DNA of 64,000 nucleotides from Minisyncoccota bacterium (GCA_035652395.1 DASRDX010000009.1:208411-272410); one strand, 5' to 3'; numbered from the stretch's first letter, positions 7,152 through 63,572 are shown. Notes: generated by a model not told the origin, from the sequence alone. Program-made: numbers and translations.

Positions 7152-7157
7152 TATAAT
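7152..7157 (+). promoter_or_regulatory. -10 hexamer TATAAT 6 nt upstream of ATG 7164 (leaderless arrangement)
   Basis: Sequence ggggTATAATaatcatATG. Confidence 0.4.
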
Positions 7158-7163
7158 AATCAT

Positions 7164-8009
7164 ATGCATAAATCCAATATTCAAATCATCAAAAATACTG
7201 GCGAAAGGGAATTTTTTGATCCGGAAAAGCTAATTGACTCCTTGCGAGACGCCGGTGCCGACAAATTGGTGATTGAAAAAGTAGTGAAGCATATTGAAGA
7301 TGAACTTCACGATGGTATGACTACGCGGGCTATTTATGATCACGCTTTTCAATATTTAAAAAAGCTCCAAAGGCCGGTAGCCGCCCGCTATTCGCTGAAA
7401 AAAGCTATTGCCGAGCTTGGACCAACCGGTTTTCCTTTTGAAGATTACGTGGCTAGAATTTTTAGCTCTCGGGGTTATAAAACCCTAACGGATCAAATGG
7501 TGCTGGGAAGCTGCGTCCCGCACGAAGTTGATATTGTGGCCTGGAACAAGGAGAAGCTCATCATGTGCGAAGTGAAATTCCATAATGAAACTAGTCCGAA
7601 GACTGATCTAAAAGTGGCTCTTTACGTGAAGGCTCGCTTTGACGATCTGAAAGCTAACATTTTTGATTACGGACACGAACGCCGGCTGGATGAAGGTTGG
7701 CTCATCACCAATACTAAATTCACTGAAACAGCTATTCACTATGGCGAGTGCTACGGTCTCAAAATGGTCGGCTGGGATTATCCGAAAAAGGGCAATCTTC
7801 AACAATTCATTGAAGACCAAGAGCTTCATCCCATTACCTGTCTCACCACTCTAACCTCCGCTGAAAAGACCGACCTTCTCGCTAACAAAATCGTCCTCTG
7901 CCGCGAACTCTTAGAAAATCACCATCATCTCTTTACGCACCTCCCCGACGCCCAAAAACGCCTCCCCGAAATTTTGGAGGAAATAAACTATCTGACAGGA
8001 CAGAAGTAA
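7164..8009 (+). CDS. ATP-cone domain fused to Mrr-like restriction endonuclease (PD-(D/E)xK) domain protein
   Basis: N-terminal IQIIKNTGEREFFDPEKLIDSLRDAG...VVKHIEDEL has an ATP-cone-like pattern. The central VDIVAWNKEKLIMCEVKF region is a D...E.K nuclease core of Mrr_cat type. Confidence 0.65.
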   Translation: MHKSNIQIIKNTGEREFFDPEKLIDSLRDAGADKLVIEKVVKHIEDELHDGMTTRAIYDHAFQYLKKLQRPVAARYSLKKAIAELGPTGFPFEDYVARIFSSRGYKTLTDQMVLGSCVPHEVDIVAWNKEKLIMCEVKFHNETSPKTDLKVALYVKARFDDLKANIFDYGHERRLDEGWLITNTKFTETAIHYGECYGLKMVGWDYPKKGNLQQFIEDQELHPITCLTTLTSAEKTDLLANKIVLCRELLENHHHLFTHLPDAQKRLPEILEEINYLTGQK

Positions 8010-8061
8010 ATTTTTTCTGAATTTGAAATAAACTCATTTTTATGGCATAATCCATTAAATA

Positions 8062-9027
8062 ATGGCCAATTTATTTCGGATCACAGCTAGTAATCCAGAG
8101 GCTTACCAGCATTACATCGATACAATCGAGCGAGGTTTTCCGTTAGATTCAGTCACTAGTTTTCTTGACCAAGATCAAATCTTTGCATTAAGAAATATCT
8201 ACGGTGATAAGCTAATTCGGGCTTGGGGTGCTACTGCAGGGTCTGGAAATATTCGAACTTGGCATCAACTTAATATTGGCGACCCCATTTTAATTTATCG
8301 AAAAGGCAATTTTGAATATTACGCTTTTGTAACTTTTAAAATCCACAATAAGGATTTGGCGAAACATTTGTGGCGCACCAATCCCCAGGGAGAAACCTGG
8401 GAATATGTTTACTTTTTAGATGGTCTGGTGGAAATTTCTGTTCCCCTCAAAATTTTTAATGAATTAATGGGATTTAACGAAGCTTTTCGACCATATGGGT
8501 TTGCCGCTACCGAATCAATGCGGTTAAATAGAATTGAAAATAAATTTGGATCAGTAATAGATTTTCTTAATTACCTTCGTGAAGGAAAATGGGTGGACAA
8601 AGAAACTCAGTATCCTGCTGAAGTCAAAGAAAATATTATAAAGGAGAGATTATTACGCCCTATTGGGAACACCACCATATTGGAAGCTAACCTCGAGAAT
8701 CTGATTGTCGATAAGGTTAGTGAAATTGAACCCGGCCTCAATCTCATTGGAAGACAAGTAGATACTAAAGAAGTCGGCCGATTAGATCTGTTGTGTGAAG
8801 ATAAGGATAAAAATCTGGTGGTCATCGAATTAAAAAGAGCGGCTGCTGGACCATCTATTATTGAACAGATTCAACGATATATGGGCTGGGCCATAAAGCA
8901 CCGAGCACAACCTGGTCAGCGAGTGCGAGGCATCATTATAGCCGGATCAAAAGATACTGCCTTAGAATACGCCGTTAGTGCAAATCCTTTAATGGAAGTA
9001 AAGACTTTCAATTTGTCTATTCAGTAG
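8062..9027 (+). CDS. NucS/EndoMS-like (DUF91) PD-(D/E)xK endonuclease domain protein with an N-terminal beta-barrel (PUA/EVE-like?) domain
   Basis: C-terminal EPGLNLIGRQVDTKEVGRLDLLCEDKDKNLVVIELKRAAAGPSIIEQIQRY matches the NucS C-terminal nuclease signature. Assignment of the N-terminal domain is inference. Confidence 0.6.
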   Translation: MANLFRITASNPEAYQHYIDTIERGFPLDSVTSFLDQDQIFALRNIYGDKLIRAWGATAGSGNIRTWHQLNIGDPILIYRKGNFEYYAFVTFKIHNKDLAKHLWRTNPQGETWEYVYFLDGLVEISVPLKIFNELMGFNEAFRPYGFAATESMRLNRIENKFGSVIDFLNYLREGKWVDKETQYPAEVKENIIKERLLRPIGNTTILEANLENLIVDKVSEIEPGLNLIGRQVDTKEVGRLDLLCEDKDKNLVVIELKRAAAGPSIIEQIQRYMGWAIKHRAQPGQRVRGIIIAGSKDTALEYAVSANPLMEVKTFNLSIQ

Positions 9028-9105
9028 ATCATACAAGAAGTCAGAATTGACAACAGCTTATACAAGAATTGGGCGGCTGGCCCACTTCTGTGATAAAAAT
9101 AACGA

Positions 9106-10494
9106 ATGTCCTCGAGACCTTTTCACGATGAATACAGCGATGAGCCAGAATTACAAGCTGGTGACAAAGTGGCATTTGGGAAATGGTTAACAATAACCCA
9201 TCCTTATAAAAATTGCCCAAATTGCAGACGTCGAGTCTTAGGCAATCCGATGATGCATAGCGGTGAGACCTATGTTATGGCATGTCTTTTGTGCGATTAC
9301 ACTGAGGGTTTGAATCTTCCAAAATTAAAAAAGAAAGTAATCTATCTAGATCAGTTCGTATTTGACAATATCGTAAAAACTTTGGATCCAAAGCACCCTA
9401 AGCACTCTCAAGTTATTAAGGAGCCATTCTGGAAGGAGGTATTTGAAAAGCTTGAAGGACCTACCAGAGCAGAACTTATTGTTTGTCCAGATTCATTTTT
9501 CCATATAGATGAATCGGCTCCAACAGATTATTTTAAGTCATTAGAAAGAATCTACGAACATTTTTCTGGAGGAGTCACCTTCTTAAATAACGCTAAAATT
9601 ACTGAACAACAGGTGGTCAATTACTTTAAAAACTGGCTAATCGGAAAAGATGTAATACCTGTTCTTGATCCATCTCAAATTGTGATAGGAGATCTAAATA
9701 AGTGGCACGACCGGATGAAAGTCAGTATAAGTATGCAGCCCAAAGAAGAAGAGATTAAAGAGAAGCTGGAACATAAGAAAAAAGGGTATAAGTTTTTTTG
9801 TGAAGTGTTCCGGCGGTGGCAGACAGAAACGCAGAGGAAATTTGACGATTGGTATCGTGAAGAGATTGGTGGATTTGCCAAGGGCACAATTCTTGCTGCA
9901 AAAAATTTCCAGGAACGCCAAACGGCTTTTTTGATGAACTATGTGCCAGGTCAAATAATTGATCTAAATAATATTTTACCGCCCCCTAGTGTTGATTTGC
10001 TTAAAAAATTAATGAATGAAGCATTTATAGCAGGAGCGTCCGATCAACAAGATTGTGTTAAAAAAGTGCTTGATTTTATGCAGATTGAGAATCTACAAAA
10101 AATACCTGCCATAAGAATTCAAAGTCTTATCTATGCCGCCCTTGCAGATCAGGCCGCTCATGGAAGAAAAAATCTACCTTCTCCCGGAGTCCAAGCGGAT
10201 ACTGATATGATCTCCGGGCTACTTCCATATTGTGATGCCATCTTTGTTGATAAGGAAAACGCAGCTCTTCTAGAAGATGGCCGAGTAAAAGGAAAGCTAG
10301 GAGTAAATACAAAAATATTTTCTCTCAGAAACAAGGAAGCTTTCCTTAATTATTTAGATAATATATTGTTAAAAGCTGATAATGATCATCTTAGATTTGT
10401 TCAGCAGATATATGGAAAGGATTGGGCGAAACCCTATCTGACAATAATTGAGGACATGGATAAATATGAAACCAATAATGGGAGCGACAAGTAA
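9106..10494 (+). CDS. Hypothetical protein with N-terminal zinc-ribbon (CPNC...CLLC)
   Basis: 462-aa ORF with an N-terminal CxxC...CxxC pair. No other recognisable motif. Confidence 0.5.
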   Translation: MSSRPFHDEYSDEPELQAGDKVAFGKWLTITHPYKNCPNCRRRVLGNPMMHSGETYVMACLLCDYTEGLNLPKLKKKVIYLDQFVFDNIVKTLDPKHPKHSQVIKEPFWKEVFEKLEGPTRAELIVCPDSFFHIDESAPTDYFKSLERIYEHFSGGVTFLNNAKITEQQVVNYFKNWLIGKDVIPVLDPSQIVIGDLNKWHDRMKVSISMQPKEEEIKEKLEHKKKGYKFFCEVFRRWQTETQRKFDDWYREEIGGFAKGTILAAKNFQERQTAFLMNYVPGQIIDLNNILPPPSVDLLKKLMNEAFIAGASDQQDCVKKVLDFMQIENLQKIPAIRIQSLIYAALADQAAHGRKNLPSPGVQADTDMISGLLPYCDAIFVDKENAALLEDGRVKGKLGVNTKIFSLRNKEAFLNYLDNILLKADNDHLRFVQQIYGKDWAKPYLTIIEDMDKYETNNGSDK

Positions 10495-10572
10495 TTTTTC
10501 GCCAACAGGGCGACACCTTTTATTTCTTGGGAGCAAGTGAGGAAATTTAAATGAATAAGATATAATCAAGAT

Positions 10573-11172
10573 ATGAGAAAAATTATTGTTTTATCTTTTA
10601 TTAGTCTAGATGGGGTAATGCAGGCGCCGGGCGGCCCGGACGAAGATACTTCGAGCGGGTTTAAATACGGGGGCTGGACCTTTCCATACTTTGATGAAGC
10701 GGCGGGGAAGCTGATGGATGAGCAGATGAAAGAGCCCTTTAGTTTGCTTTTGGGGCGAAAAACTTATGACATCTTTGCCAATTATTGGCCGCAACATGGA
10801 GAGAATTGGCCCGGAGTAAATAAAGCTCAAAAATACGTGGCTTCAAACACTTTGACCGAGGCCAAATGGGAAAACAGTGTCATTTTAAATGGGGATGTGG
10901 TATCCGCCGTGAAGAAATTGAAAGAGGAAGATGGGCCGGATCTTCAGGTTTATGGTTCCGGCAATTTCATTCAAACTCTTCTTAAGAACGATTTAGTGGA
11001 TGAATTATGGCTGAAAACCTTTCCCGTAACTCTTGGTGGTGGTAAGAAATTGTTTGCCGAGGGTACGATTCCGGCTGCATTTAAATTGCTGGAGTCTAAA
11101 TCTACACCCAGCGGAGTAATTTTCGCCAATTACAAGAGAGATGGGGAAGTAAAAACCGGTTCTTTTTCCTAG
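10573..11172 (+). CDS. Dihydrofolate reductase family protein (RibD C-terminal domain type)
   Basis: IIVLSFISLDGVMQAPGG...GRKTYDIF...VYGSGNF pattern of the YwjB/RibD_C family. Confidence 0.75.
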   Translation: MRKIIVLSFISLDGVMQAPGGPDEDTSSGFKYGGWTFPYFDEAAGKLMDEQMKEPFSLLLGRKTYDIFANYWPQHGENWPGVNKAQKYVASNTLTEAKWENSVILNGDVVSAVKKLKEEDGPDLQVYGSGNFIQTLLKNDLVDELWLKTFPVTLGGGKKLFAEGTIPAAFKLLESKSTPSGVIFANYKRDGEVKTGSFS

Positions 11173-11209
11173 CCTCTAAACAGGAATTGAAAAGTGTTAT
11201 ACTGCTCGC

Positions 11210-12007
11210 GTGAGTCACTATAATAAAGACAAAAAAAGGACTATTTTCAATACTGATTCCAAGGAGCCTTTTAAGATCAGTCGATCAAAGATTGATCTTT
11301 TTACCGAGTGTCCGCGCTGTTTTTATTTAGATCAGGTGCTCGGCGTGCCACGCCCGCGACCCTTTCCCTTCACTTTAAATGCAGCTGTTGATAAGTTGCT
11401 GAAGAAGGAATTCGATATTCATCGCGCGGCGGGGAGCCCTCATCCCATGATGGAACAATATGGAATTGATGCCGTGCCATTTGCTCACGATAATCTGGAG
11501 GAATGGAGAGACGCTCTTCGAAAGGGCATTAGCTATTTGGATCCGGAAACCAATCTTTTGGTGCGAGGCGGAATAGATGATGTTTGGATTACCTCGGACA
11601 AGGAATTATTAATTGTTGATTATAAAGCTACAGCCAAAGAGGCCGAAGTTACTCTAGATGCAGAGTGGCAGGACGGATACAAGAGACAAGTGGAAGTTTA
11701 TCAATGGCTCTTTCGTCAAAATGGTTTTAAAGTCTCCGATACCGCTTGGTTTGTCTACGTGAACGGCAAAACAGACAGAAAAGCTTTTGATGGGAAGTTG
11801 GATTTCGATATTAAATTAATTTCTCACAAGGGATCTGATAAATGGATTCCGGCGACACTGAAGGAGATCAAGAAATGTTTAATAAGCGAGAAATCGCCGG
11901 CGCCGGCCGAGGACTGCGAGTATTGCAGTTATCGCAATCAGGCGGCCGCCGCTTTTCAGGCCCGTATTAGCGCTAATAAAGAATTGAAAGAATCAACCTT
12001 GTTTTAA
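11210..12007 (+). CDS. Cas4/RecB-like PD-(D/E)xK nuclease with Fe-S cysteine quartet
   Basis: N-terminal CPRCFY and C-terminal CEYCSY cysteines flank a DYK...QVEVYQ nuclease core, as in Cas4/AddB nuclease domains. GTG start. No CRISPR array nearby. Confidence 0.65.
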   Translation: MSHYNKDKKRTIFNTDSKEPFKISRSKIDLFTECPRCFYLDQVLGVPRPRPFPFTLNAAVDKLLKKEFDIHRAAGSPHPMMEQYGIDAVPFAHDNLEEWRDALRKGISYLDPETNLLVRGGIDDVWITSDKELLIVDYKATAKEAEVTLDAEWQDGYKRQVEVYQWLFRQNGFKVSDTAWFVYVNGKTDRKAFDGKLDFDIKLISHKGSDKWIPATLKEIKKCLISEKSPAPAEDCEYCSYRNQAAAAFQARISANKELKESTLF

Positions 12008-12617: not shown

Positions 12618-12630
12618 GTATAGTTAACCT

Positions 12631-13239
12631 ATGAAGCTAGAAGAAAAGAAAGAAGCCCTCCGAAAAATAAAAGACGAGGTAGTGGCTCTGAAAGCCTCGC
12701 CCTTGTTTGAAGAAAGAACTAAGAACAAAGTTTTCCCAGTAATAGGCGAGGGAAGTCATGATGGGGAAATTATGTTCGTGGGAGAAGCACCGGGAAAAAA
12801 CGAAGCCGCGACCGGCCGCCCTTTTGTCGGGGCGGCCGGAAAAATCCTGACTCAATTATTGGAAGAGATCGGCATTAAGCGCGAAGATGTCTACATTACC
12901 AATATCGTCAAAGATCGACCACCGCAAAATCGCGATCCATTGCCAGACGAAATCGAAATCTACGGCCCGTTTCTGGATCGTCAGATTGATATCATCCAGC
13001 CAAAAATCATCGCCACTCTAGGACGATTTTCAATGGTCTACATCATGACGAAATTCGGTCTGGAATTTGAACTTTTGCCAATTACCCAAATGCACGGCAA
13101 AAGTTTTGAGGCCGAAGCTACCTATGGCAAAGTCACTATCATTCCGTTCTACCATCCAGCCGCTTCAATCTATAATCAAAGTTTGCGAGAAGTATTGCGA
13201 GAGGACTTCAAAATTTTAAAGAAATATGCCAAAAAATAA
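12631..13239 (+). CDS. Uracil-DNA glycosylase, family 4
   Basis: GEAPGKNEAATGRPFVGAAGKIL...ITNIVKDRPPQNRDP motif. Confidence 0.9.
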   Translation: MKLEEKKEALRKIKDEVVALKASPLFEERTKNKVFPVIGEGSHDGEIMFVGEAPGKNEAATGRPFVGAAGKILTQLLEEIGIKREDVYITNIVKDRPPQNRDPLPDEIEIYGPFLDRQIDIIQPKIIATLGRFSMVYIMTKFGLEFELLPITQMHGKSFEAEATYGKVTIIPFYHPAASIYNQSLREVLREDFKILKKYAKK

Positions 13240-15013
13240 ATCAAAATCTAAAACCGAATGGAACCTCGGCCTGCTTTATAAAAGCCCGAAGGACCCACAG
13301 ATTGAAAAGGATATCCGAACGATAGAAGCGGCTTTCAATAACTTTGAAAAAAAATACAAAGACAAGGATGATTATTTGAAAAATGAAGCTGCTTTATTTC
13401 GGGCTCTGACTGATGGCGAGAAATTGCGGGATATCGTCGGCTCAACGAGGCCGCTTCATTATTTTCATTTGCTTAAGGATATTGATTCTCAAAACAAGAT
13501 AGCTGAAGCCAGACTCAACCAACTTTCGGAACACCTAACCAAAGTTTCCAATAAGGTCTTGTTTTTCGAGCTGAAATTGGGAAAAATTCCGCCAAATCTG
13601 CAAAAAAGATTTTTACAGAGCCGAAAATTAGAGCATTTCCGCTACCAACTGAAACTGATTTTTGACCAAAGCCGACACAACCTAACAGAGCCGGAAGAAA
13701 AGATTATGAATCTAAAGTCACTGCCGGCCTATTCGATGTGGGTAAATAGCTCTGAAAAATATCTTTCCAAGCAAGAAATATCATTCAAGCGGAAAATGCT
13801 GCCGATCGCCGAAGCTATCGGCCGTGTTTCGTCTTTACCAACACCAGACCGCCGAAACCTAATGAGAGACGTAATGAAAAAATGCAAAGAGATCAGTGAT
13901 TTTGCCGAAGCTGAATTAAATGCCGTTATAACTAACAAAAAAATCAATGATGAGCTGCGCCATTTTAAAAATCCATATGACGCCACCCTGCTTTCTTATG
14001 AGACGTCAGAGAAAATGGTTTTGAATTTAATCGATACGGTCACCAAGAATTTCAAAATCAGTCACGATTTCTACAAATTGAAAGCCAAGCTAATGCGCCT
14101 GCCATATTTAACTTACGCCGATCGGAATGCCAAGGTAGGCAAAAGCACGAAGGTTTATAAGTGGAAAGAGACTCTGAAAACTGTTGAAAATGCCTTTGAA
14201 ATTGTCAGTCCAAAATATGCCGACATTTTAAAATCTTATGTGAAAAGGGGTCAAATTGATGTTTATCCTAATAAGGGCAAAACCGGAGGCGCCTACTGCT
14301 CTGGCGGGCTCAATATTGATACTTTTGTGTTGTTAAACCATACCGATAGTCTCGGATCCGTCATGACTTTGGGGCATGAGATGGGCCACGCCATCCATAC
14401 GGAATTAAGCAAAGTTCAAAGCCCGCTTTATCAAGGCTATACCATTGCCGCCGCCGAAGTGGCCAGTACTTTGTTTGAAAACTTTGTCTTTGATCAGATT
14501 TTTGAAACTTTAAGTCCGAAAGAAAAAGTTATTGCCCTTCATAATCGGCTCAATGACGACATTCAAACTATATTTCGCCAGATTGCCTGTTTTAATTTTG
14601 AAAACGACTTGCATCAGAAAATCAGAAAAGATGGTGCCATTTCAAAAGAAGAAATTGCGGCTCTCATGAATAAGCATATGAAAAGTTATCTCGGACCAAT
14701 CACTCGCTTGGAAGAAGTGGATGGTTACTTTTTCGTTTACTGGAGCCACATTCGCCGATTCTTTTATGTCTACACTTACGCTTTCGGCCAGATTGTTAGC
14801 AAAGCCCTTTATAAAAAGTATCGGGAAGATAAGAACTTTTTAAACAAAATCGAGCAATTCCTAAAAGCTGGCGGCAGTAAATCACCGGAAGATATTTTCA
14901 AGGATATCGGTATCGATGTCACCAAGCCAGATTTCTTTCAACGTGGATTGGACCAAATCAAAGGAGATATAAAAGAGCTGGAAAAATTGGCAAAAGAGGC
15001 CAAATTGATATAG
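13226..15013 (+). CDS. pepF: Oligoendopeptidase F (M3B family)
   Basis: HEMGH zinc motif with the surrounding M3 fold pattern. Confidence 0.88.
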   Translation: MPKNKSKSKTEWNLGLLYKSPKDPQIEKDIRTIEAAFNNFEKKYKDKDDYLKNEAALFRALTDGEKLRDIVGSTRPLHYFHLLKDIDSQNKIAEARLNQLSEHLTKVSNKVLFFELKLGKIPPNLQKRFLQSRKLEHFRYQLKLIFDQSRHNLTEPEEKIMNLKSLPAYSMWVNSSEKYLSKQEISFKRKMLPIAEAIGRVSSLPTPDRRNLMRDVMKKCKEISDFAEAELNAVITNKKINDELRHFKNPYDATLLSYETSEKMVLNLIDTVTKNFKISHDFYKLKAKLMRLPYLTYADRNAKVGKSTKVYKWKETLKTVENAFEIVSPKYADILKSYVKRGQIDVYPNKGKTGGAYCSGGLNIDTFVLLNHTDSLGSVMTLGHEMGHAIHTELSKVQSPLYQGYTIAAAEVASTLFENFVFDQIFETLSPKEKVIALHNRLNDDIQTIFRQIACFNFENDLHQKIRKDGAISKEEIAALMNKHMKSYLGPITRLEEVDGYFFVYWSHIRRFFYVYTYAFGQIVSKALYKKYREDKNFLNKIEQFLKAGGSKSPEDIFKDIGIDVTKPDFFQRGLDQIKGDIKELEKLAKEAKLI

Positions 15014-15020
15014 TTAGGGC

Positions 15021-16703
15021 ATGAATTCAGCCGAAATTCGGGAGCGATTTCTAAAATTTTTTGAAAAAAGGGGACACAAAATTATTCCTTCGGCATCGCT
15101 CGTGCCGGAGAATGATAATAGCGTGCTTTTCACTACTGCGGGTATGCAGCAATTTAAACCATATTTTATTGGGCTTGCCGACGCGAAAAAAGATTTTGGT
15201 ACCTTAAATACTGCTTCTATTCAAAGGTGTATTCGAACTTCTGATATTGAAGAGGTGGGAGATGAAAGCCATTTAACCTTTTTTGAGATGTTGGGGAACT
15301 TTAGTTTCGGAGGCTATTGGAAAAAAGACGCTATACAATATGGTTATGATTTTATTACTAAAGAATTGGGTTTAAAGATTGACTATGTAACAGTTTTTCA
15401 GGGAGAAGGGGAGGTGCCTTCCGATACAGAGTCAGAAAAAATTTGGCGAACTATTGATCAGCACATTCTTATTAAAAAGGCTGGGCGATCGGATAATTTT
15501 TGGGGACCAACCGGTGAGGAAGGGCCGTGCGGTCCAACTACAGAAATATACGTAGATGGCATTGAGGTCTGGAATATCGTCTTCAATGAGTATTTTCAGA
15601 ATAAGAGTAAAGGACTTGCGCCGCTAAAAGTCACAGGAATCGATACGGGAATGGGATTAGAGCGCTTAGCGAAAGTCGTTCAGAAGACACCCACAGTTTT
15701 TGAAACAGATTTATTTTCTTTTGGTCAAATACTTAGTGATTTTGACGAAAGAACCAAAAGAATAATTTTAGATCATTCCCGCGCGGTCGTTTTCCTTATT
15801 AATGATGGTGTGGAACCTACAAACAAAGGAAGAGGTTACATTTTGCGCCGTCTCTTAAAAAGAATTGTCACTCATTATTACTTAGCCAGTATTTCGAAAA
15901 AGGTACCCATGAATTATGAGGATATATTGAGGGCAGTCTGTATAAAATATAAAGACATATATCCATCTTTAGACCTTTCCCGTGTTGAGGATATAGTTAG
16001 AAATGAATATATAAGATTTAATGAAAGTCTTCCTAAGGGCCTAAAGGAATTAAGCAAGATGAAGAGTATTGATATATCGAATGCATTTTTGCTATTTGAA
16101 AGCTATGGACTTGACTTCGATTTAATAAAAGAGCTTGCTCCAAAAGAAACAGAGCGGCTGACCAGAGAAGATTTTGAAAAAGAGCTTAAGAAACATCAGG
16201 AAATTTCTCGCGCCGGTGCCGAACAAAAATTCAAAGGAGGTCTGGCTGATACATCCGAGATGTCCGTCAAATATCATACCGCTACTCATTTATTGAACGC
16301 GGCCTTGAGAGAAGTTCTCGGGAAAGAAGTGGTGCAGAAGGGAAGTAACATTACGCCGGAGCGCCTGCGTTTTGACTTCAGTTATCCGAATAAAATGACC
16401 GATGAGCAGAAGAAGGCGGTGGAAGATTTGGTCAATAGCAAAATCGAGGCAAATCTTCCGGTTTCCTTTAAGGAGATGTCCAAGGAGGAGGCCGAGAAAA
16501 CCGGCGCCGTTCATGCTTTCGGCGAAAAATACGGAGATGTTGTCAAAGTTTATTCGATCGGTGATGAGAAAAATGGATACTTCAGCCGAGAATTTTGTGG
16601 CGGGCCACACGTGGAGCGAACCGGGATTCTGGGACATTTTAAGATCACTAAAGAAGAAGCGGTTTCTGCCGGTGTTCGGCGAATAAAAGCTGTCTTGGAA
16701 TAG
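15021..16703 (+). CDS. alaS: Alanyl-tRNA synthetase, compact form (no C-Ala domain)
   Basis: N-terminal class II AlaRS catalytic core (FTTAGMQQFKP, GLERL) plus editing-domain HxxxH...CGGPHV motifs. Only 560 aa. Confidence 0.85.
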   Translation: MNSAEIRERFLKFFEKRGHKIIPSASLVPENDNSVLFTTAGMQQFKPYFIGLADAKKDFGTLNTASIQRCIRTSDIEEVGDESHLTFFEMLGNFSFGGYWKKDAIQYGYDFITKELGLKIDYVTVFQGEGEVPSDTESEKIWRTIDQHILIKKAGRSDNFWGPTGEEGPCGPTTEIYVDGIEVWNIVFNEYFQNKSKGLAPLKVTGIDTGMGLERLAKVVQKTPTVFETDLFSFGQILSDFDERTKRIILDHSRAVVFLINDGVEPTNKGRGYILRRLLKRIVTHYYLASISKKVPMNYEDILRAVCIKYKDIYPSLDLSRVEDIVRNEYIRFNESLPKGLKELSKMKSIDISNAFLLFESYGLDFDLIKELAPKETERLTREDFEKELKKHQEISRAGAEQKFKGGLADTSEMSVKYHTATHLLNAALREVLGKEVVQKGSNITPERLRFDFSYPNKMTDEQKKAVEDLVNSKIEANLPVSFKEMSKEEAEKTGAVHAFGEKYGDVVKVYSIGDEKNGYFSREFCGGPHVERTGILGHFKITKEEAVSAGVRRIKAVLE

Positions 16704-16729
16704 AGTCGATAAGCGCTATAATAAAGAGA

Positions 16730-17887
16730 ATGGAGAAACAAGTTTTGCTTTTTTATATTGGTAACGGAGGACTGAAGAGTGCTTTAATCAGTCAATCCAA
16801 AACAGATCTACCGAAAATTTTGTTACTGGATCGAGAAAGTCTCGGAAATTCGGCAAGCTTGTCTAAGAAGGAGCTGGAAGAAGTTGTCTATAGAAAATTG
16901 GATGCACTCGCCGGTCGGATGCAAAAAGCTATTCTAGATGCCAACCTTACGAATAAGAAGGTAAACGCAGTTTTAGCCATCGTTTCCGCTCCTTGGTATC
17001 ACGCTCTGACCAAAACCTATAAATTGAAAAAGGATGAACCCTTCTTAATTAAAGACAAAACCATCACGGAATTATTGGAATCAACCGATAAAGATTCAGC
17101 TCCGGAGCAAGAAGAAGTCACGGTCTTGGAAAGAAAAATTATTCACATTGCTCTAAATGGCTACGTCACGGATTCGCCGATTAATAAAAAAGCAACCGAT
17201 CTGGAAGTTTCGGTAATTCAAAGTCTGACGGAGAAAAAATTCCTAAGCGAGATTGAAAATATTTTATCCAGATATTTTCCGATTTCGGCTTACCATTTTC
17301 ACACTTTGGCCTTGGCCAGTTTCGTTACCATTCGGGATATTCTGAAAGAGACCAAGGATTTTCTTTTAATTAATGTCACGAATTTAATCAGCGAAATTTC
17401 CTTGGTTAAGGACAATCTGCTACAGGAAACTATTTCGATTCCAATTGGTTTTGCCGGCTTACTGGATAAAGTTTCAAAGGCCCTGAATGTTACTCCCGAG
17501 GTAGCCTTTTCTCTTTTAAAAATGTACAAAGGTGATCAGTTGGAAAAACAGATTGGGGAGAAATTGGGAGAATCCCTAGCCGTCTTCAGGAAGGAATGGG
17601 CGGCTCAAATTGGGGAGGCCTTCAAAAATCTCTCGGGAGGAGTGGCGCTTCCGGCCGCCTGCTACTTATTGTCGCATCACCAGCTAGAAAATCTGTTTGC
17701 CGATTTGATTCAACCAGAAGATTACAGTCAGTTTTCTTTCAATCAGGGAGAATTTCATATTCGAAATATTTCGGCTCTGGACTTCGTACAATTTATTGAC
17801 TTCAATCGCTTACCTCTCGATTCCGGAATGGCGGTGGCTATCATTTTCGCCAAACAAACCCTTTTGAATCGGGAACGAATGAGTTAG
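16730..17887 (+). CDS. Hypothetical protein, possibly a degenerate actin-like ATPase fold (FtsA/PilM-like)
   Basis: LLFYIGNGGLKSAL (phosphate-1-like) and FLLINVTNLISEISLV (phosphate-2-like with the glycines replaced). Inference only. Confidence 0.4.
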   Translation: MEKQVLLFYIGNGGLKSALISQSKTDLPKILLLDRESLGNSASLSKKELEEVVYRKLDALAGRMQKAILDANLTNKKVNAVLAIVSAPWYHALTKTYKLKKDEPFLIKDKTITELLESTDKDSAPEQEEVTVLERKIIHIALNGYVTDSPINKKATDLEVSVIQSLTEKKFLSEIENILSRYFPISAYHFHTLALASFVTIRDILKETKDFLLINVTNLISEISLVKDNLLQETISIPIGFAGLLDKVSKALNVTPEVAFSLLKMYKGDQLEKQIGEKLGESLAVFRKEWAAQIGEAFKNLSGGVALPAACYLLSHHQLENLFADLIQPEDYSQFSFNQGEFHIRNISALDFVQFIDFNRLPLDSGMAVAIIFAKQTLLNRERMS

Positions 17888-17911: not shown

Positions 17912-19348
17912 ATGGCCAATCAATTCCAAGATATCATTCCACCAAAAAAACGATCTATTCGGGACATTCCCTTACCGGAAGGACGGGAGCGACCCGATCG
18001 ACCGACACCTCCACCGCCGCCACTCACTCATCGACCAAAAGCTGAACCGGAGATTAAAGCACGACCTTCTCCTGTAGTTCCACCCCGGGAAGAGGTGAGA
18101 ATAAAAAAGACTCCGGAGATTAGGCCTAACGAAGAAATAGTCGGGCCCCGCCCCATCGATTCTCCTCCCGATCTGGAAGAACGATCAGAGCGAGATCCTT
18201 ATTGGCGAGCTGGCCTCTGGCTTCTGGCCCTAATTGCCCTGATTTTTCTCTTCTTCGGCGTTTCTTATTTATTTGCCGGCGCGAATATAAAAGTCATTCC
18301 TCACAGTCAGGATGTAACAGTCAATCAAACTATCAACGCTGACCCAAATGGAAGCGGGGGAACCATGCCGTATGCCGTGATCACATTGGAAAAGACTGGC
18401 AGCAAAGATGTAACGGCCAATGGAACGCAGAATGTGGCTAACAAGGCTTCTGGAGAGATTATCATCTACAACAATTACAGTTCCAGTCCACAATCACTAG
18501 TAGCCACTACTCGGTTTGAGACTCCGGAAGGTTTGGTTTTCCGAATCGATAAAGATATAACAGTGCCCGGGCAGAGCACGGTTAACGGACAGGTAACGGC
18601 AGGCAGCGTTGAAGCAACCGTTTATGCCGATCAGGCCGGCGAAGAATATAATGTTGGTTTGAAAGATTTCACCATTCCGGGTTTTAAAGGCACGCCTAAA
18701 TATCAAGGATTCTATGCCCGTTCAAAAACACCGATTACCGGAGGCTTCATTGGTACTACTGCCACAGCTTCGGCCGCCGATATCGCTACCGCCAAAACTC
18801 AAATTGAGGCAGATCTACGAAATCAATTTATAACCCAAGCCAATTCTCAAAAGCCCGACGACTTTATTCTTTATCCAGACGCTCTTACCATTACTTATTC
18901 TCCGGCAGCTAATTCCACCAGCACTACTCAAAAGTTGACGGTGCGGGAAAGCGCTACTGCTTACGCCGTTCTGTTCAATCGCAATATTTTGGCTAAATAT
19001 TTCCAAGATAACCTTTCCGTCAATTATTCAAGTAGTACTCTAGCGGGAATTGAGAATTTAAAATTCAGTTTTACAAATCCGAACGGTTTTCAATCAACCG
19101 CCTCAAGCTCGGCCGACTTCACTTTTAAACTGGAAGGTACTTTGAAGCTAGTTTCCTTGGTAGATATTGAGAAATTAAAAAATGATCTGAAGGGAATCTC
19201 TCGTTCAGGACTTTCAGCCGTTTTAGCTAAATATCCTTCCATTGAAAAAGCCGAGGTAGTTTTCAAACCATTCTGGCGCTGGTCTTTTCCGAATAAAACG
19301 GCTAATATTAAGGTTGAAATTGAAAGCGCCACCTCCACCGTTGACTAA
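17912..19348 (+). CDS. Hypothetical proline-rich, single-pass membrane protein
   Basis: Pro-rich cytoplasmic N-terminus, one TM helix, and a Ser/Thr-rich extracytoplasmic domain. Confidence 0.5.
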   Translation: MANQFQDIIPPKKRSIRDIPLPEGRERPDRPTPPPPPLTHRPKAEPEIKARPSPVVPPREEVRIKKTPEIRPNEEIVGPRPIDSPPDLEERSERDPYWRAGLWLLALIALIFLFFGVSYLFAGANIKVIPHSQDVTVNQTINADPNGSGGTMPYAVITLEKTGSKDVTANGTQNVANKASGEIIIYNNYSSSPQSLVATTRFETPEGLVFRIDKDITVPGQSTVNGQVTAGSVEATVYADQAGEEYNVGLKDFTIPGFKGTPKYQGFYARSKTPITGGFIGTTATASAADIATAKTQIEADLRNQFITQANSQKPDDFILYPDALTITYSPAANSTSTTQKLTVRESATAYAVLFNRNILAKYFQDNLSVNYSSSTLAGIENLKFSFTNPNGFQSTASSSADFTFKLEGTLKLVSLVDIEKLKNDLKGISRSGLSAVLAKYPSIEKAEVVFKPFWRWSFPNKTANIKVEIESATSTVD

Positions 19349-19413
19349 AGGGCCTTATTTCTGTTATGCTGAGGTTACTGGTTTAATTTAATATGTTCGG
19401 CAAGAAAATATAA

Positions 19414-19635
19414 ATGGCTAGCAGTAAAGAGAAAGCTCCAAGCGCCACTGGGGTAGTGACTGAAGCCTTGCCCAATACCTTATTCAAGGTCAGATTGGAT
19501 GATCAAGAAGAGGAACTCTTGGCGTATCTTGGAGGCCGAATGAGATTGAATCGAATCAGAGTTTTAATTGGAGATAAAGTTCAGGTAGAACTTGATCCGT
19601 ACGGAGGCAGGGGAAGGATTGTCAAAAGGTTTTAA
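19414..19635 (+). CDS. infA: Translation initiation factor IF-1
   Basis: S1-like IF-1 sequence GVVTEALPNTLFKVRLD...GDKVQVELDPYG. Confidence 0.95.
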   Translation: MASSKEKAPSATGVVTEALPNTLFKVRLDDQEEELLAYLGGRMRLNRIRVLIGDKVQVELDPYGGRGRIVKRF

Positions 19636-22713: not shown

Positions 22714-23058
22714 ATGGAACACACTATCGACGCAAAAGATAAAAAATTGGGCAGAGTCGCATCAGAGGCGGCCCGAATTTTGATGGGTAAGAATCGAGCG
22801 GATTTTGCCCGTCATCGTATTCCAAATCAAACGGTGCGCATTATCAACGCCTCGGCCGTTAATATTGATACTAAAAAACGCCAAGGTAAAACATATCAGT
22901 TTTACAGCGGTTACCCTGGTGGGCAGAAGACAGTAACTCTGGAGCGGTTGATCGGCAAGAAGGGCTACTCAGAAGCATTTCGCAAGGCCGTTCGCGGGAT
23001 GTTGCCGCCAAACAAACTTCGGGCTAGAATGCTCAAGCAATTAATTATCACGGAATAA
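22714..23058 (+). CDS. rplM: 50S ribosomal protein L13
   Basis: L13 consensus. Confidence 0.96.
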   Translation: MEHTIDAKDKKLGRVASEAARILMGKNRADFARHRIPNQTVRIINASAVNIDTKKRQGKTYQFYSGYPGGQKTVTLERLIGKKGYSEAFRKAVRGMLPPNKLRARMLKQLIITE

Positions 23059-24247: not shown

Positions 24248-24610
24248 ATGTTAGAGGTCATCAAAAATTACAACCAAAAATCGGTAATTCTCCTAAAGAA
24301 GCTCTCGAGCGGCTGGCTGGCTTCCGTTATTGTATTTAATGAGAGTAATGAATCAAAAATTCTGGGACAGAAAGTCCTGAATGAAGCTGAATATATACTT
24401 TTGCTGACGGAGAAGAGGGAATTGGAGAGTCGAAATATTTTCATAATTTTCGAGGAAAATATTTCGACTAAACCATTCCTTCTGGCTTCGCCGAAAGCCG
24501 ATAGCCTCCCTGTCGAGAGTGCTGATATCGTACCTTCCCCATACTTTTTATCTTTATTTAGAGAAGCGGAATTCTTCTCGACTCAAAAGACTCGCGGACC
24601 AAATAAGTAA
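24248..24610 (+). CDS. Hypothetical protein inserted between grpE and dnaK
   Basis: 120-aa ORF in the operon orientation. No motif recognised. Confidence 0.4.
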   Translation: MLEVIKNYNQKSVILLKKLSSGWLASVIVFNESNESKILGQKVLNEAEYILLLTEKRELESRNIFIIFEENISTKPFLLASPKADSLPVESADIVPSPYFLSLFREAEFFSTQKTRGPNK

Positions 24611-26575: not shown

Positions 26576-26785
26576 TCAAGAAGACGCTGGCCGGTTCGTG
26601 AAATACAGACTTCTGAAAAATGACCACGTGAGACCAAGAGACCCCATGATCATCAGAGCCATAGCTATTCTATGTTCGGTGGGATTGGGATTAGCCGGAT
26701 GTTTCCAATGATGAATAACTACTGCCCAAGCCCCGCTGCACATTAGTAAAAGGATGATTTTGAATCGAATCAGAGTTGTTTTCAT
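26576..26785 (-). CDS. Possible small two-TM membrane protein antisense between dnaK and dnaJ
   Basis: 70 aa from MKTT with two hydrophobic helices. GGAGGG lies 8 nt upstream of this ATG. Could be spurious. Confidence 0.22.
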   Translation of the reverse strand: MKTTLIRFKIILLLMCSGAWAVVIHHWKHPANPNPTEHRIAMALMIMGSLGLTWSFFRSLYFTNRPASS

Positions 26786-26834
26786 TGATATTCCCTCCAC
26801 TTATAAAATAACATAATAAATTTAATCAGTCAAG

Positions 26835-28165: not shown

Positions 28166-28202
28166 GCCCTAATCATATCAACTATTATGTTAAAATATAG
28201 AG

Positions 28203-34060: not shown

Positions 34061-34073
34061 TAGAATTTTAACG

Positions 34074-36003: not shown

Positions 36004-36010
36004 TTTTATT

Positions 36011-40415: not shown

Positions 40416-40433
40416 TACTATATAATTATTAGA

Positions 40434-42773: not shown

Positions 42774-42779
42774 TATAAT
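42774..42779 (+). promoter_or_regulatory. -10 hexamer TATAAT 6 nt upstream of mraY ATG (leaderless arrangement)
   Basis: Sequence ggcTATAATtctcctATG. Confidence 0.4.
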
Positions 42780-42785
42780 TCTCCT

Positions 42786-48850: not shown

Positions 48851-48859
48851 TGCTATAAT
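48851..48859 (+). promoter_or_regulatory. Extended -10 TGcTATAAT 6 nt upstream of asnB ATG
   Basis: Sequence atatTGCTATAATagttttATG. Confidence 0.45.
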
Positions 48860-48865
48860 AGTTTT

Positions 48866-51664: not shown

Positions 51665-51694
51665 TTGACAGGTGAACTATGGTTCACCTATACT
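51665..51694 (+). promoter_or_regulatory. Consensus promoter TTGACA-18-TATACT with embedded LexA (Cheo-type) SOS box GAACTATGGTTC at 51674-51685
   Basis: Perfect GAAC-N4-GTTC palindrome within the spacer of a near-consensus sigma70 promoter. It drives the small ORF plus lexA. Confidence 0.8.
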
Positions 51695-51700
51695 ATAGAC

Positions 51701-51901
51701 ATGGGTAAAAGTCAGATTTTAAACAAAATTAGATATGAGCTCGACAAGTTAAATGAGCAGATCGATCTAGCTATTATTGAGGGCCGCAACTACAAATCTT
51801 TGGCTAGTAAACATAAGATTTTGCTTTCCCGATTCAACCGATTGCAGAGTGAGGGAAGTTCTTTACTAACTAAAAGCTTTCGTTTCTTAACGTTATTTTA
51901 A
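51701..51901 (+). CDS. Hypothetical small protein co-transcribed upstream of lexA (leaderless)
   Basis: ATG lies 6 nt after the TATACT -10 of the LexA-box promoter. The stop is 1 nt before the lexA ATG. Confidence 0.35.
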   Translation: MGKSQILNKIRYELDKLNEQIDLAIIEGRNYKSLASKHKILLSRFNRLQSEGSSLLTKSFRFLTLF

Positions 51902-56977: not shown

Positions 56978-56986
56978 TGCTATAAT
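56978..56986 (+). promoter_or_regulatory. Extended -10 TGcTATAAT 6 nt upstream of M23 peptidase ATG 56993
   Basis: Sequence ttTGCTATAATttctccATG. Confidence 0.45.
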
Positions 56987-56992
56987 TTCTCC

Positions 56993-57652
56993 ATGATTTT
57001 CCCGACCTTAAAAAATAAGGCCTTTGGGTATGTAAACCTAAATACTGAAGCGGAACTGTGGCTTAAAGATCAGAAACCAGCTTTAAAAGAAAATGCTTTA
57101 CTTGATCCTGAAGTGAATACTAAAATGGTTGCTGATGTGCACAAAAAATATGGAATTGATTTTTCGTATGGTGGTTGGATGGAAGACAGAAGTTTTTTGG
57201 GGCGCGGAACATATCTTGAGCCTCTAAATACTTATCTCCACCTTGGTGTTGATATTAATGCCCCGGTTGGAACAGAAATAGCTGCCGATTTTAATGCAGA
57301 AGTGATTTTGATTGATGACGATTATCCGGAAGAAGGGGGTTGGGGACCAAGAGTTATGCTGAAACATCAATCAAAACCGGTGTATTTTATTTACGGACAT
57401 TTGGACAAAGAAATTTCGTTTACGAAGGGAGAAAAAATTACAAAAGGACAAGTATTCGCCCGGATCGGTAAGGCTCCTTACAATGGAAATTGGTTTCCTC
57501 ATGTACACGTTCAAGTAATTAGAGAGGATTTCTATAAACAGCTAGAAAAGGAAAATGCTGTAGAAGATCTTGATGGTTACGGCTCTTGGGAGAATTTAGC
57601 GAATCACGCTTTTAGATTTCCTGACCCACTCCAATACATATCACTTACATAG
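56993..57652 (+). CDS. M23-family peptidase (LytM-like)
   Basis: HLGVDINAPVGT...HVHVQV M23 motifs. Confidence 0.78.
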   Translation: MIFPTLKNKAFGYVNLNTEAELWLKDQKPALKENALLDPEVNTKMVADVHKKYGIDFSYGGWMEDRSFLGRGTYLEPLNTYLHLGVDINAPVGTEIAADFNAEVILIDDDYPEEGGWGPRVMLKHQSKPVYFIYGHLDKEISFTKGEKITKGQVFARIGKAPYNGNWFPHVHVQVIREDFYKQLEKENAVEDLDGYGSWENLANHAFRFPDPLQYISLT

Positions 57653-58173: not shown

Positions 58174-58677
58174 TTATTGATGGCAAGATGTTTGACTCAG
58201 ACTTACTTCCTTTTGGACATTGTTTGCTGCTACATTACAAATCGCAAATAGAACCAAAAAGGCTAAACCCAAAATAAAACTAAACATTACAAAGTCATTT
58301 ATTCGTTCGATTTTCCTTCCTCTTTTATCCTTGAGATCATCAGACAACTTTTGATACATTTGAGGTGTAAATTCCTCTGGTGCACCAATACGGTTGTTTA
58401 TTTCCTCAAAATTTTCTGCAGAATATCTTCTACTTATGTAATAACTAAAGGCATTTGACATTAGCGAAGAAGAAAGACAGGCCCAAGAAGCCAGTAGTAG
58501 TTGAATATTCTCTAAACAAGAAGAGCCGCTATAGAAAGTAATCGATACGGCGAAAGCCCCAGCGGAAACGTATAAAAGAATTTTACTCAATTCTTCATCA
58601 GCAAGCTTTTCGCCCCATCTATTCCTCTCCAATTCTTTAAAGATGAATTCTCTAAAATTAGAATCTGACAGAGACAT
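58174..58677 (-). CDS. Hypothetical membrane protein downstream of the Doc toxin gene
   Basis: Two TM segments. Same strand as Doc, 51 nt downstream. Confidence 0.45.
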   Translation of the reverse strand: MSLSDSNFREFIFKELERNRWGEKLADEELSKILLYVSAGAFAVSITFYSGSSCLENIQLLLASWACLSSSLMSNAFSYYISRRYSAENFEEINNRIGAPEEFTPQMYQKLSDDLKDKRGRKIERINDFVMFSFILGLAFLVLFAICNVAANNVQKEVSLSQTSCHQ

Positions 58678-58728
58678 TCAATTATTATACCTCTAATTTA
58701 TGCAGGATCCGACCAGGGGCTCACTTCC

Positions 58729-59157: not shown

Positions 59158-59414
59158 TCCTTTCCAAGTTTCTCGAAGACTTCTCGATACTCCTTTACAG
59201 CTCTTTTTACTGCCGAGTTAATTTCTTTTCGACTAGATTTGGGAAGATTGGAATCTATATGTAGATTTTTTACATCAATAATATAGTTTCTTCCAACCTT
59301 TTCAGCCGGAATTTCACCACTTTGAATCTTCTTGAATACGGCCGTTCTGCTTAATCCATATAAACGAGATATTTCAGTAGCGCTGTAGTATCTTTTGTTT
59401 GAGCCATTTTTCAT
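59154..59414 (-). CDS. HTH (excisionase/MerR-like) DNA-binding protein, putative antitoxin for Doc
   Basis: SATEISRLYGLSRTAVFKKIQSGEIPAEKVGRNYII helix-turn-helix. 4-nt overlap with the doc start. A palindromic operator lies immediately upstream. Confidence 0.7.
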   Translation of the reverse strand: MKNGSNKRYYSATEISRLYGLSRTAVFKKIQSGEIPAEKVGRNYIIDVKNLHIDSNLPKSSRKEINSAVKRAVKEYREVFEKLGKE

Positions 59415-59422
59415 ATTTGTAT

Positions 59423-59438
59423 GTTAACATATGTTAAC
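59423..59438. promoter_or_regulatory. Perfect 16-bp palindrome GTTAACATATGTTAAC, candidate TA-operon operator
   Basis: Lies 9 nt upstream of the antitoxin ATG on the minus strand. It sits between a TTGATA -35-like and a TACAAA -10-like element. Confidence 0.6.
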
Positions 59439-62507: not shown

Positions 62508-62539
62508 GTTTATGTAAGGACGAGTGATGTCCTTCTTGC

Positions 62540-62983
62540 TTACTTATTGATAGCGACGCTTGAGCTTGCGGCGGATTTGGCCACATTGTCCCAACAGGCG
62601 CTGGAAGAAATCCACGGCTCCGAACCCTGCGAAGTGTAGAGATAACGGGCGTAGGCCATGTTGCCTTTTAAGGTGTAGATATCGAGACCCATCTTTTTCG
62701 AAGTCTGGAGGTGGTATTTTTCGTTAATCTGCATCACTCCGACGTCACTGGTATTAATGGAACCGCGATAAATATTGCCGTTTGAGGCATATTGATGGTA
62801 ATGCGATTCACACTGAGCGATATCGGCCATTAAAGGAATGTCCTTAAAGTAGGCCTTTACTGCCGCTTCCACCTTCTTAGGGCTCACATAAAGGGTTTTT
62901 TCATCCGGCTTTTGAGCTACCTTGGAGCTGGAGGTGGCCAGCAAAAGGGCTACTTTATTGACTGGCTGACCCTTCGTGGCCAC
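62540..62983 (-). CDS. Transglycosylase-like (Rpf-like lysozyme fold) domain protein
   Basis: DIAQCESHY...VGVMQIN resembles the transglycosylase-like domain CESGG/Q core. GTG start in the ORF track. Confidence 0.55.
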   Translation of the reverse strand: MATKGQPVNKVALLLATSSSKVAQKPDEKTLYVSPKKVEAAVKAYFKDIPLMADIAQCESHYHQYASNGNIYRGSINTSDVGVMQINEKYHLQTSKKMGLDIYTLKGNMAYARYLYTSQGSEPWISSSACWDNVAKSAASSSVAINK

Positions 62984-63159
62984 AGTTTCTTCAGCATGAA
63001 GAACCGAATAGGTATTCGGTGAAAGATTCGGAGTTTGTGAAATTAGAGCGGCGCTAGTCGGTTTTGGGGTAATTAAGAGGGATACGGCAGTAAATGCTGC
63101 AATAAATAAATGTATTATAAGCCTTTTTTTAGCTGATAAACTGAAGACTTACCGGGAGA

Positions 63160-63186
63160 AGAAAAAACCAGACATCATGTCTGGTA
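63160..63186 (-). terminator. Minus-strand intrinsic terminator (CCAGACAT...ATGTCTGG followed by TTTTTTC)
   Basis: Palindrome 63168-63184 with an A-run on the plus side, giving a U-tract on the minus strand. Confidence 0.55.
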
Positions 63187-63332
63187 ATCAATATACTAGC
63201 AGATTTGAGGTTTTTTTCAAGGCCGCTGTGGATAAAAAATAAAGGAAATTTTATATTTCGTGCCTTAAAATAAGCATTTTTTAACTTGGTCCAATTGACA
63301 ATTTACTCTAAAATGTGGTAAAAACAGTTAAG

Positions 63333-63572
63333 ATGAAAGCTCACATGTTCCGAATGTCCGATCTTCCACCCGAAACCAAGGAATACATTGATGTTGAACC
63401 AGAAGACCGATGGATAGTTGAGATTGCGAAACGAATGTCTCGACCCAATTCTATCCTTTATCTTTCTTATGAAGTGGGTAAATCCCCCGTTCACAACATT
63501 CATCGAGTCGAATTCTATTTGGCTCGACCAGGGATCCAAATTCTGCTTTGTTTAGTACCTTGGCGTCCATGA
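63333..63572 (+). CDS. Hypothetical small acidic protein
   Basis: TTGACA-17-GTAAAA promoter-like sequence with the ATG about 9 nt after the -10. The stop codon sits in the loop of a terminator hairpin. It competes with an antisense ORF. Confidence 0.3.
   Translation: MKAHMFRMSDLPPETKEYIDVEPEDRWIVEIAKRMSRPNSILYLSYEVGKSPVHNIHRVEFYLARPGIQILLCLVPWRP

Follow-up and report, generated by a model that had tools for sequence, protein, structure and literature searches.

Leaderless mRNAs, found in Actinobacteria, Deinococcus, archaea and Escherichia coli, are read by the ribosome from a 5'-terminal AUG via the initiator tRNA and not through pairing between a Shine-Dalgarno (SD) sequence and the anti-SD. 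In the GeneMarkS-2 survey, bacterial leaderless transcription defines group C, which includes Actinobacteria (Mycobacterium tuberculosis, Streptomyces, Corynebacterium) and Deinococcus-Thermus, and a Pribnow box 6 to 8 nt from the start codon is its accepted signature; the Candidate Phyla Radiation (CPR) and Paceibacterota are not mentioned in the main text of that survey (PMC6028130). For Parcubacteria, Tsurumaki et al. 2022 reported roughly half of the group as having no detectable CCTCCT anti-SD and inferred that SD helices do not form there; their study covered rRNA and ribosomal proteins only and mentions neither leaderless mRNAs nor promoters (PMC9297842). Our literature search found no paper linking leaderless mRNAs with Parcubacteria, Patescibacteria or CPR. 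Here, we analyzed a 64-kb stretch from a Minisyncoccota bacterium (GCA_035652395.1, DASRDX010000009.1:208411-272410; the window), in which hexamers resembling the -10 promoter element TATAAT recur directly upstream of start codons. We propose, with a probability of roughly 0.8, that this organism, a member of the Paceibacterota (Parcubacteria, CPR), initiates translation without SD pairing and that about 20 of the 70 genes lie behind a sigma-70-type promoter that would yield a leaderless mRNA.

At 42% GC, the window is densely packed with genes, most of them on the plus strand, and 70 gene starts were scored. A -10 box at the leaderless position precedes 20 of them, that is, ~29% of genes or about one third of the likely operon-first genes. 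Eighteen have a hexamer matching at least five of the six consensus positions at a spacer of 6 to 7 nt, and the extended -10 criterion TGnTAnnnT adds mnmA (6052) and the minus-strand gene at 59414. The spacer is 6 nt (N6) at 15 sites and 7 nt (N7) at the other 5, the start codon is ATG at 19 (the sole exception being GTG 11210), and the extended -10 element TGn is present at 11. The initial annotation had listed 13 hexamer/start pairs, all of which are where it placed them, with N6 at 10 and N7 at 16730, 36088, and 40434. It was also right about TGn at trpS, asnB, and 56993, and the element occurs too at 11210, 15021, and 28203. Seven sites come in addition to that list (3801, 6052, 34074, and 43841; on the minus strand, 28165, 58677, and 59414). 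The complete set is as follows.

3788-3803, plus strand: TAAAAT-N7-ATG of a hypothetical protein (ATG 3801); same start as HZS42844.1, the longer TTG 3795 not being deposited.
6037-6054, plus strand: TGtTAAATT-N6-ATG of mnmA (ATG 6052), an extended -10.
7152-7166, plus strand: TATAAT-N6-ATG of an ATP-cone/Mrr-like protein (ATG 7164); same start as HZS42847.1, ATP-cone from residue 6.
10561-10575, plus strand: TATAAT-N6-ATG of a RibD_C/DHFR-family protein (ATG 10573); same start as HZS42850.1, RibD_C from residue 2; a terminator-like hairpin (10499-10513) lies upstream of the promoter.
11195-11212, plus strand: TGtTATACT-N6-GTG of a PD-(D/E)XK nuclease (GTG 11210).
12619-12633, plus strand: TATAGT-N6-ATG of a family-4 uracil-DNA glycosylase (ATG 12631); the hexamer starts 2 nt past the preceding stop.
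15006-15023, plus strand: TGaTATAGT-N6-ATG of alaS (ATG 15021); the pepF stop codon and the hexamer overlap, and a -35-like TTGGCA lies 16 nt upstream.
16717-16732, plus strand: TATAAT-N7-ATG of a hypothetical protein (ATG 16730), with TTGGAA 16 nt upstream.
28163-28205, both strands: divergent pair, TGtTAAAAT-N6-ATG of a 169-aa protein without family (ATG 28203, plus) and TGaTATGAT-N6-ATG of a UBP-type zinc-finger protein (ATG 28165, minus).
34058-34076, plus strand: TGaTAGAAT-N7-ATG of a sensor histidine kinase (ATG 34074).
36008-36090, plus strand: terminator with a 14-bp stem and a T-tract (36008-36043), then TGcTATTAT-N7-ATG of trpS (ATG 36088).
40389-40436, plus strand: GC-rich hairpin GGGTCGGGC-TTCG-CCCGACCC (40389-40409), then TATAAT-N7-ATG of scpA (ATG 40434).
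42774-42788, plus strand: TATAAT-N6-ATG of an mraY-like glycosyltransferase 4 gene (ATG 42786).
43826-43843, plus strand: TGcTATCAT-N6-ATG of ftsW (ATG 43841); same start as HZS42887.1, the longer 43754 start not being deposited.
48851-48868, plus strand: TGcTATAAT-N6-ATG of asnB (ATG 48866).
51665-51703, plus strand: TTGACA-18-TATACT-N6-ATG of a 66-aa open reading frame (ORF) upstream of a lexA-like gene, a near-consensus two-hexamer promoter.
56978-56995, plus strand: TGcTATAAT-N6-ATG of an M23 peptidase (ATG 56993).
58675-58689, minus strand: TATAAT-N6-ATG of a hypothetical protein (ATG 58677).
59412-59429, minus strand: TGtTAACAT-N6-ATG of an 86-aa ORF (ATG 59414).

The TATAAT-start architecture is real and far above chance, and this can be established without any gene calls. 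The two strands together contain 32 perfect TATAAT hexamers, and an ATG stands at N6 or N7 after 8 of them, versus 0 to 2 at every other offset. TATAATN6ATG occurs 6 times (0.71 expected) and TGnTAnnnT-N6-ATG 11 times (1.81 expected), numbers that none of 100 dinucleotide shuffles reached in either case. TGn with N7 taken alone is not above chance (3 versus 1.87), and thus the signal is carried by N6. When gene calls are used, with shuffles of each gene's own 30 upstream nucleotides as the null, a hexamer matching at least 5/6 positions stands at spacer 6-7 before 18 of the 70 starts, compared with an average of 2.2, and never more than 9, in 5000 shuffles, and TGnTAnnnT stands there before 11 genes, compared with 0.27. 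The spacer histogram over the window genes peaks at 6-7 only. Such hexamers precede none of the 63 annotated starts in our E. coli control, a 50-kb region with the orthologous ribosomal-protein genes. Enrichment of the spacing over shuffled controls, which the initial annotation had named as a genome-wide criterion, was borne out within the 64-kb window.

The decisive result on the nature of the hexamers is the extended -10 element. The TG one base upstream of a -10 hexamer is contacted by sigma region 3.0, and we know of no role for it in translation. It accompanies 8 of 15 start-proximal hexamers but only 16 of 614 (2.6%) -10-like hexamers elsewhere in the window, an enrichment of about 20-fold (Fisher P = 7e-9). 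By this measure, the start-proximal hexamers behave as promoters of the sigma-70 type and not as translational signals. Their consensus is the full Pribnow box T-A-t-a-a-T, in which A2 and T6 are invariant, and at three sites a hairpin (10499-10513, 36008-36043, and 40389-40409) lies between the preceding stop codon and the hexamer. The motif is absent from the tightly linked rpsM-rplQ (ribosomal-protein/rpoA) and rplM-rpsI clusters, and a position-specific profile of the 52 non-promoter genes showed no positional motif, only A/T richness. No enrichment of the -35 hexamer was found at the start-proximal hexamers (a match of at least 4/6 in 3 of 15, versus 16% elsewhere), which fits extended -10 promoters, and a generic two-hexamer promoter scan of the window was barely above shuffles. 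We therefore claim a -35-dependent promoter only at 51665, where TTGACA-18-TATACT is perfect.

The spacing itself suggests where transcription would begin. The -10 element lies 7 bp upstream of the transcription start site in a cross-species promoter study (PMC12641261), and a 6-nt spacer would therefore put the canonical +1 on the A of the ATG. Compactness points the same way at the divergent pair, where the 37-bp intergenic region 28166-28202 contains both extended -10 promoters back to back and leaves no room for leaders. The ftsW promoter is located inside the 3' end of mraY, whose stop codon overlaps the ftsW ATG (TGATG), and ftsW could be expressed by coupling as well as from its own internal promoter.

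Further motif occurrences were seen around these sites. In the 289-nt spacer upstream of the nitroreductase-like gene at 31927, TGaTAAAAT-N6-ATG heads a 41-aa ORF (31771-31911, plus strand), which may be a leaderless small ORF, or the site may be the promoter of a leadered transcript for gene 31927. A near-identical 19-mer, TTGATAT(AG/GA)TTAGGGCATG, occurs at two leaderless-type promoters (15005-15023, plus strand, and 28163-28181, minus strand). In one relative (locus L006), the region upstream of alaS (about 9975-9993) reads TTGATATGATTAGGGC followed by a 10-nt leader. A conserved promoter-discriminator family built on "TTGATATRRTTAGGGC" was rejected, as only 3 instances exist in 4.5 Mb on both strands, namely, the two window sites (alaS and minus-strand 28165) and the alaS site of L006.

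The second part of our proposal concerns the absence of SD pairing. The mean duplex energy between positions -20 to -1 and the anti-SD (5'-ACCUCCUUA-3') is -1.13 kcal/mol in the window, compared with -6.48 kcal/mol in the E. coli control. Energies of -4.4 kcal/mol or lower were obtained for 7.5% of the window genes, the same value as for their own shuffles (7.5%), versus 23% for internal ATGs and 87% in E. coli. SD-like pentamers are not avoided within coding sequences, either: the ratio of observed counts to a synonymous-shuffle null is 1.02 (z = +0.4) in the window and 0.66 (z = -4.2) in E. coli, and the lack of avoidance hints indirectly that SD-like sequences are not engaged by the ribosome. 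Upstream regions are A/T-rich throughout and show a strong depletion of G. The starts of the non-promoter genes are less folded than internal 40-mers (mean, -2.8 versus -5.1 kcal/mol; P = 3e-7), which fits initiation driven by accessibility. A useful contrast is the infA-rpmJ-rpsM-rpsK-rpsD-rpoA-rplQ cluster, where the region leading into infA (19341-19416, plus strand; ATG 19414) has TTGACT-18-TGtTATGCT and then an A/T-rich leader of about 37 nt without SD. The initial annotation had noted that no GGAGG-like motif occurs in the 15 nt before the ATGs of rpsM, rpsK, rpsD, rpoA, infA, and dnaK, which is correct, and its suggestion of largely SD-free initiation agrees with an anti-SD signal equal to that of shuffles and with the lack of SD avoidance in genes. 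Its "pervasive leaderless mRNAs" are supported as far as leaderlessness goes, through promoter geometry and TGn, whereas "pervasive" has to be narrowed to ~29% of genes. We infer that the anti-SD of the 16S rRNA has been lost or is unused. Neither rRNA nor tRNA genes occur in the window, and nothing in it matches an Rfam family at the gathering threshold; the conserved 16S 3' motif was also absent from all 160 relative loci fetched, which contain no rRNA.

Only two strong SD motifs in the window are followed by an ORF at a plausible gene start, and each belongs to a compact unit of its own.

35648-36043, plus strand: 100-aa ORF (TTG 35701) with AAGGAGG-N4-TTG, promoter TTGATT-16-TGgTATAAT, and the 36008 terminator downstream.
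26576-26833, minus strand: 69-aa ORF with hydrophobic stretches (ATG 26785), GGAGG-N8-ATG, and promoter TTGACT-17-TGtTATTTT.

The first, which has the sole strong SD at a plausible plus-strand start, is self-contained between the histidine-kinase gene and trpS and belongs to no family. The second runs antisense in the 272-nt dnaK-dnaJ spacer and has its own terminator (26591-26569). For both, JGI/IMG is the only source listed, with no NCBI accession, and the second ORF, like the first, has no family. They may be overpredictions attracted by the SD motifs or real genes. The region 35682-36043 was also considered as a noncoding RNA and rejected, as it has no Rfam match and its folding z score of -3.5 comes largely from the terminator.

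Our reading depends on the start codons being right. All 16 leaderless-type starts that were looked up coincide exactly with NCBI gene products, and most coincide with IMG calls too. Residue 1 of AlaRS aligns to profile position 1, and about 70 relatives share its N-terminal M-N/D-S directly after the ATG. AsnB begins with MCGI, in which Cys2 is the nucleophile that class-II amidotransferases carry at the N terminus, and its start is therefore unambiguous. TrpRS, like the ATP-cone protein, enters its domain at residue 6.

Taken together, these observations suggest the following model. The -10 hexamer ends 6 nt before the start codon, or 7 nt at a minority of sites, and would act in most cases independently of a -35 element, with TGn at about half of the sites. 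As judged from the spacing, RNA polymerase would begin the transcript on the A of the AUG (at 11210, on the G of the GUG), producing an mRNA without a 5' leader, and the ribosomes of this organism would presumably initiate at the 5'-terminal AUG. Since the promoters lie in gaps of 7 to 80 nt or within the 3'-terminal part of the gene before, many co-directional genes could be transcribed individually, with read-through transcripts perhaps being made as well. In the other genes, about 50 in number and including the ribosomal-protein/rpoA cluster, dnaK, and infA, the start regions are rich in A/T, poor in G, and weakly structured; initiation there most likely relies on unstructured, accessible starts, together with coupling where stop and start codons overlap.

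A weaker form of the same signature is present in relatives. In 1387 ATG-start ORFs from 154 non-redundant Parcubacteria/Patescibacteria loci, with starts assigned naively to the longest ORF, -10-like hexamers peak at spacers of 6, 7, and 8 nt (67, 50, and 41, versus a background of about 16), and TGn accompanies 35% of the hexamers at these spacers versus 13% elsewhere. SD complementarity, at 18%, lies barely above the 13% of shuffles, and it stays at or below 33% in every locus of 12 or more genes. Upstream of alaS, 12 of 71 relatives satisfy the strict criterion at spacers 5-8, and by eye many more have TAnnnT at 6 to 9 nt. Leaderless-type genes make up 26 to 29% of the window and about 8 to 11% of this naive set. 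The architecture thus appears to be clade-wide, the window being a strong example. In the pooled relative loci (L001-L160), TAnnnT-like hexamers also pile up at spacers 0 and 1 (58 and 40, versus about 16), possibly owing to stop codons upstream or to A/T-rich sequence at the start itself.

Several points weigh against our proposal. The exact 5' end (no leader, or a leader of 1 to 2 nt, especially at the N7 sites) is read from spacing only, and the lack of -35 enrichment bears on the promoter strength of the sites without TGn. Promoters located within or right after a co-directional gene make read-through, leadered transcripts of the same genes likely. The support from annotated start codons may be partly circular, because NCBI annotation, presumably also for this record, uses PGAP/GeneMarkS-2, which models this very motif. 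If the SD-bearing ORFs at 35701 and 26785 are real, an anti-SD may still exist. Finally, the sample is 64 kb of the source genome, from a contig of 462.7 kb.

A more far-reaching version of our proposal is that this Paceibacterota lineage and much of the Parcubacteria have abandoned the SD/anti-SD interaction altogether, with a 16S rRNA devoid of CCUCC. Initiation would then follow two SD-independent routes only, gene-by-gene leaderless transcripts from extended -10 promoters and unstructured A/U-rich start regions. We put this forward tentatively and regard it as somewhat doubtful. If true, it would make this a bacterial clade with an initiation logic like that of leaderless-rich archaea, and it would tie the reported anti-SD loss to a concrete alternative mechanism.

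It is unlikely, in our view, that the promoters are real but produce transcripts with very short leaders, starting 1 to 3 nt off the A of the AUG, or that a downstream start codon is used. Such a scheme would accommodate the 7-nt spacer at 5 sites and the shoulder at spacers 8-9 in relatives, and the transcription start is known to vary by ±1 nt relative to the -10 in other bacteria. The spacer is, however, exactly 6 nt at 15 of the 20 sites, placing the canonical +1 on the A, and domain boundaries leave no downstream start in AlaRS, AsnB, RibD_C, ATP-cone, and TrpRS. Moreover, a leader of 1 to 3 nt would be functionally equivalent to none for SD-independent initiation.

We find it more improbable still that the TATAAT-like element is an A/T-rich, non-SD translation signal on leadered or polycistronic mRNAs, like the ribosome-binding site (RBS) of the Bacteroidetes type (group B). 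The motif is indeed A/T-rich and placed where an RBS would be, many sites lie in short co-directional gaps that are possibly co-transcribed, and upstream regions are A/T-rich and G-poor in all genes. An RBS would nevertheless be expected before operon-internal genes, and the ribosomal-protein cluster, with most tightly linked genes, lacks the motif. Nor would an RBS account for the roughly 20-fold excess of TGn, the perfect -35 at 18-nt spacing at one site, the hairpins before three others, or a consensus equal to the full Pribnow box. A compositional artefact, arising from A/T-rich DNA, stop codons embedded in TATAAT/TATAGT, and biased start picking, can draw on the hexamers that overlap or abut the preceding stop at 12619 and 15009, on the A/T-rich upstream regions, and on the spacer 0-1 pile-up in relatives, but it is hardly credible given the local shuffles (2.2 versus 18 observed; at most 9 in 5000), the same peak in the test without gene calls, the 0/63 of the E. 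coli control, the distance of 15 to 60 nt between most hexamers and the preceding stop, and a co-occurrence with TGn that stop codons cannot explain.

The genes identified in the window are leuS, mltG, mnmA, family-4 uracil-DNA glycosylase, pepF, short-form alaS, and infA-rpmJ-rpsM-rpsK-rpsD-rpoA-rplQ-rplM-rpsI, followed by grpE-dnaK-dnaJ, trpS, Asp/Asn-tRNA ligase, scpAB, mraY-ftsW-murG, gltX, asnB, a lexA-like gene, and rarA.

Many other genes of the window have no family match. Exact-sequence look-ups retrieved the NCBI records of the window proteins (HZS42844-HZS42904; locus tags VFA52_013xx-016xx), and TGA is a stop codon, e.g., at the end of mraY, in line with genetic code 11. In genome and metagenome scans, the matches listed for AlaRS come only from Parcubacteria/Patescibacteria metagenome-assembled genomes, with at most 58% identity. 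This AlaRS (15021-16703) is a short form of 560 aa; its best match is PRK01584, whose 595-position model it spans end to end, and not the 847-position bacterial alaS model. The uL13 protein (22714-23058) has only 114 aa, which agrees with its reported shortening at both termini in Parcubacteria (PMC9297842). A 342-aa protein (2744-3772, plus strand) carries a sigma-70 region-4-like helix-turn-helix at its N terminus (residues 4-71) and a weak RNA polymerase delta-like match (residues 222-290); since region 2 is absent, it is not a complete sigma factor. A 120-aa ORF without family match (24248-24610, plus strand) sits between grpE and dnaK in an otherwise conserved chaperone cluster.

These results have practical consequences. 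SD-based tools will give biased gene starts in CPR genomes: strong SD motifs drew small-ORF calls made by IMG only (35701 and 26785). Longest-ORF starts are wrong at 3795 and 43754, where the annotated start is the promoter-adjacent ATG. As the genes have no RBS of their own, one must be supplied if they are to be expressed in SD-dependent hosts. Leaderless expression also allows extreme compaction, with promoters placed in 7- to 80-nt gaps, in gene ends, and in a 37-bp divergent spacer that accommodates two. More broadly, the window supplies mRNA-side evidence matching the reported absence of the anti-SD in many Parcubacteria and suggests a replacement for SD-led initiation in reduced genomes.

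How does this locus compare with described systems? It resembles group C in having a TAnnnT box 6 to 8 nt before operon-first starts, as in the 25 to 50% of operons concerned there, and in its strong preference for ATG. Both the positional box and its promoter (rather than RBS) nature are found in the window, and SD on the remaining genes is not. Group C genomes are almost all of high GC and use SD on their other genes (a dual model), whereas the window combines 42% GC with remaining genes that are free of SD, and its hexamer comes near the full TATAAT, often together with an extended TGn. Low-GC members of group C exist among the code-4 genomes (some Mollicutes, such as Mycoplasma), in which 30 to 60% of transcripts are predicted to be leaderless (MetaGeneMark-2 preprint, 10.1101/2022.07.25.500264). 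These likewise are reduced genomes with a promoter box next to the start; however, they yield an SD-type RBS model for the other genes, and the window uses code 11. With the Bacteroidetes-type genomes of group B the window shares little or no SD and A-rich, unstructured starts. In that group, the same non-SD motif precedes all genes, including operon-internal ones, without a promoter; the motif of the window is a promoter before a subset of genes, and because no common non-SD motif precedes all of them, the window does not belong to group B.

The promoters themselves are like the extended -10 (TGnTATAAT) promoters of E. coli and Gram-positive bacteria, with TG one base upstream and no need for a good -35, although in model organisms these normally drive leadered mRNAs and here they abut the start codon. 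The anti-SD-less Parcubacteria belong to the same superphylum, and the window, with neither SD enrichment nor SD avoidance, is the mRNA-side counterpart of what was described for their ribosomes. We conclude that a group C-like leaderless architecture is well supported, in a variant marked by low GC, by an extended -10 close to consensus, and by the lack of SD on the other genes. This is a known style of expression and not a new kind of mechanism, met with here in a group for which it has barely been documented.

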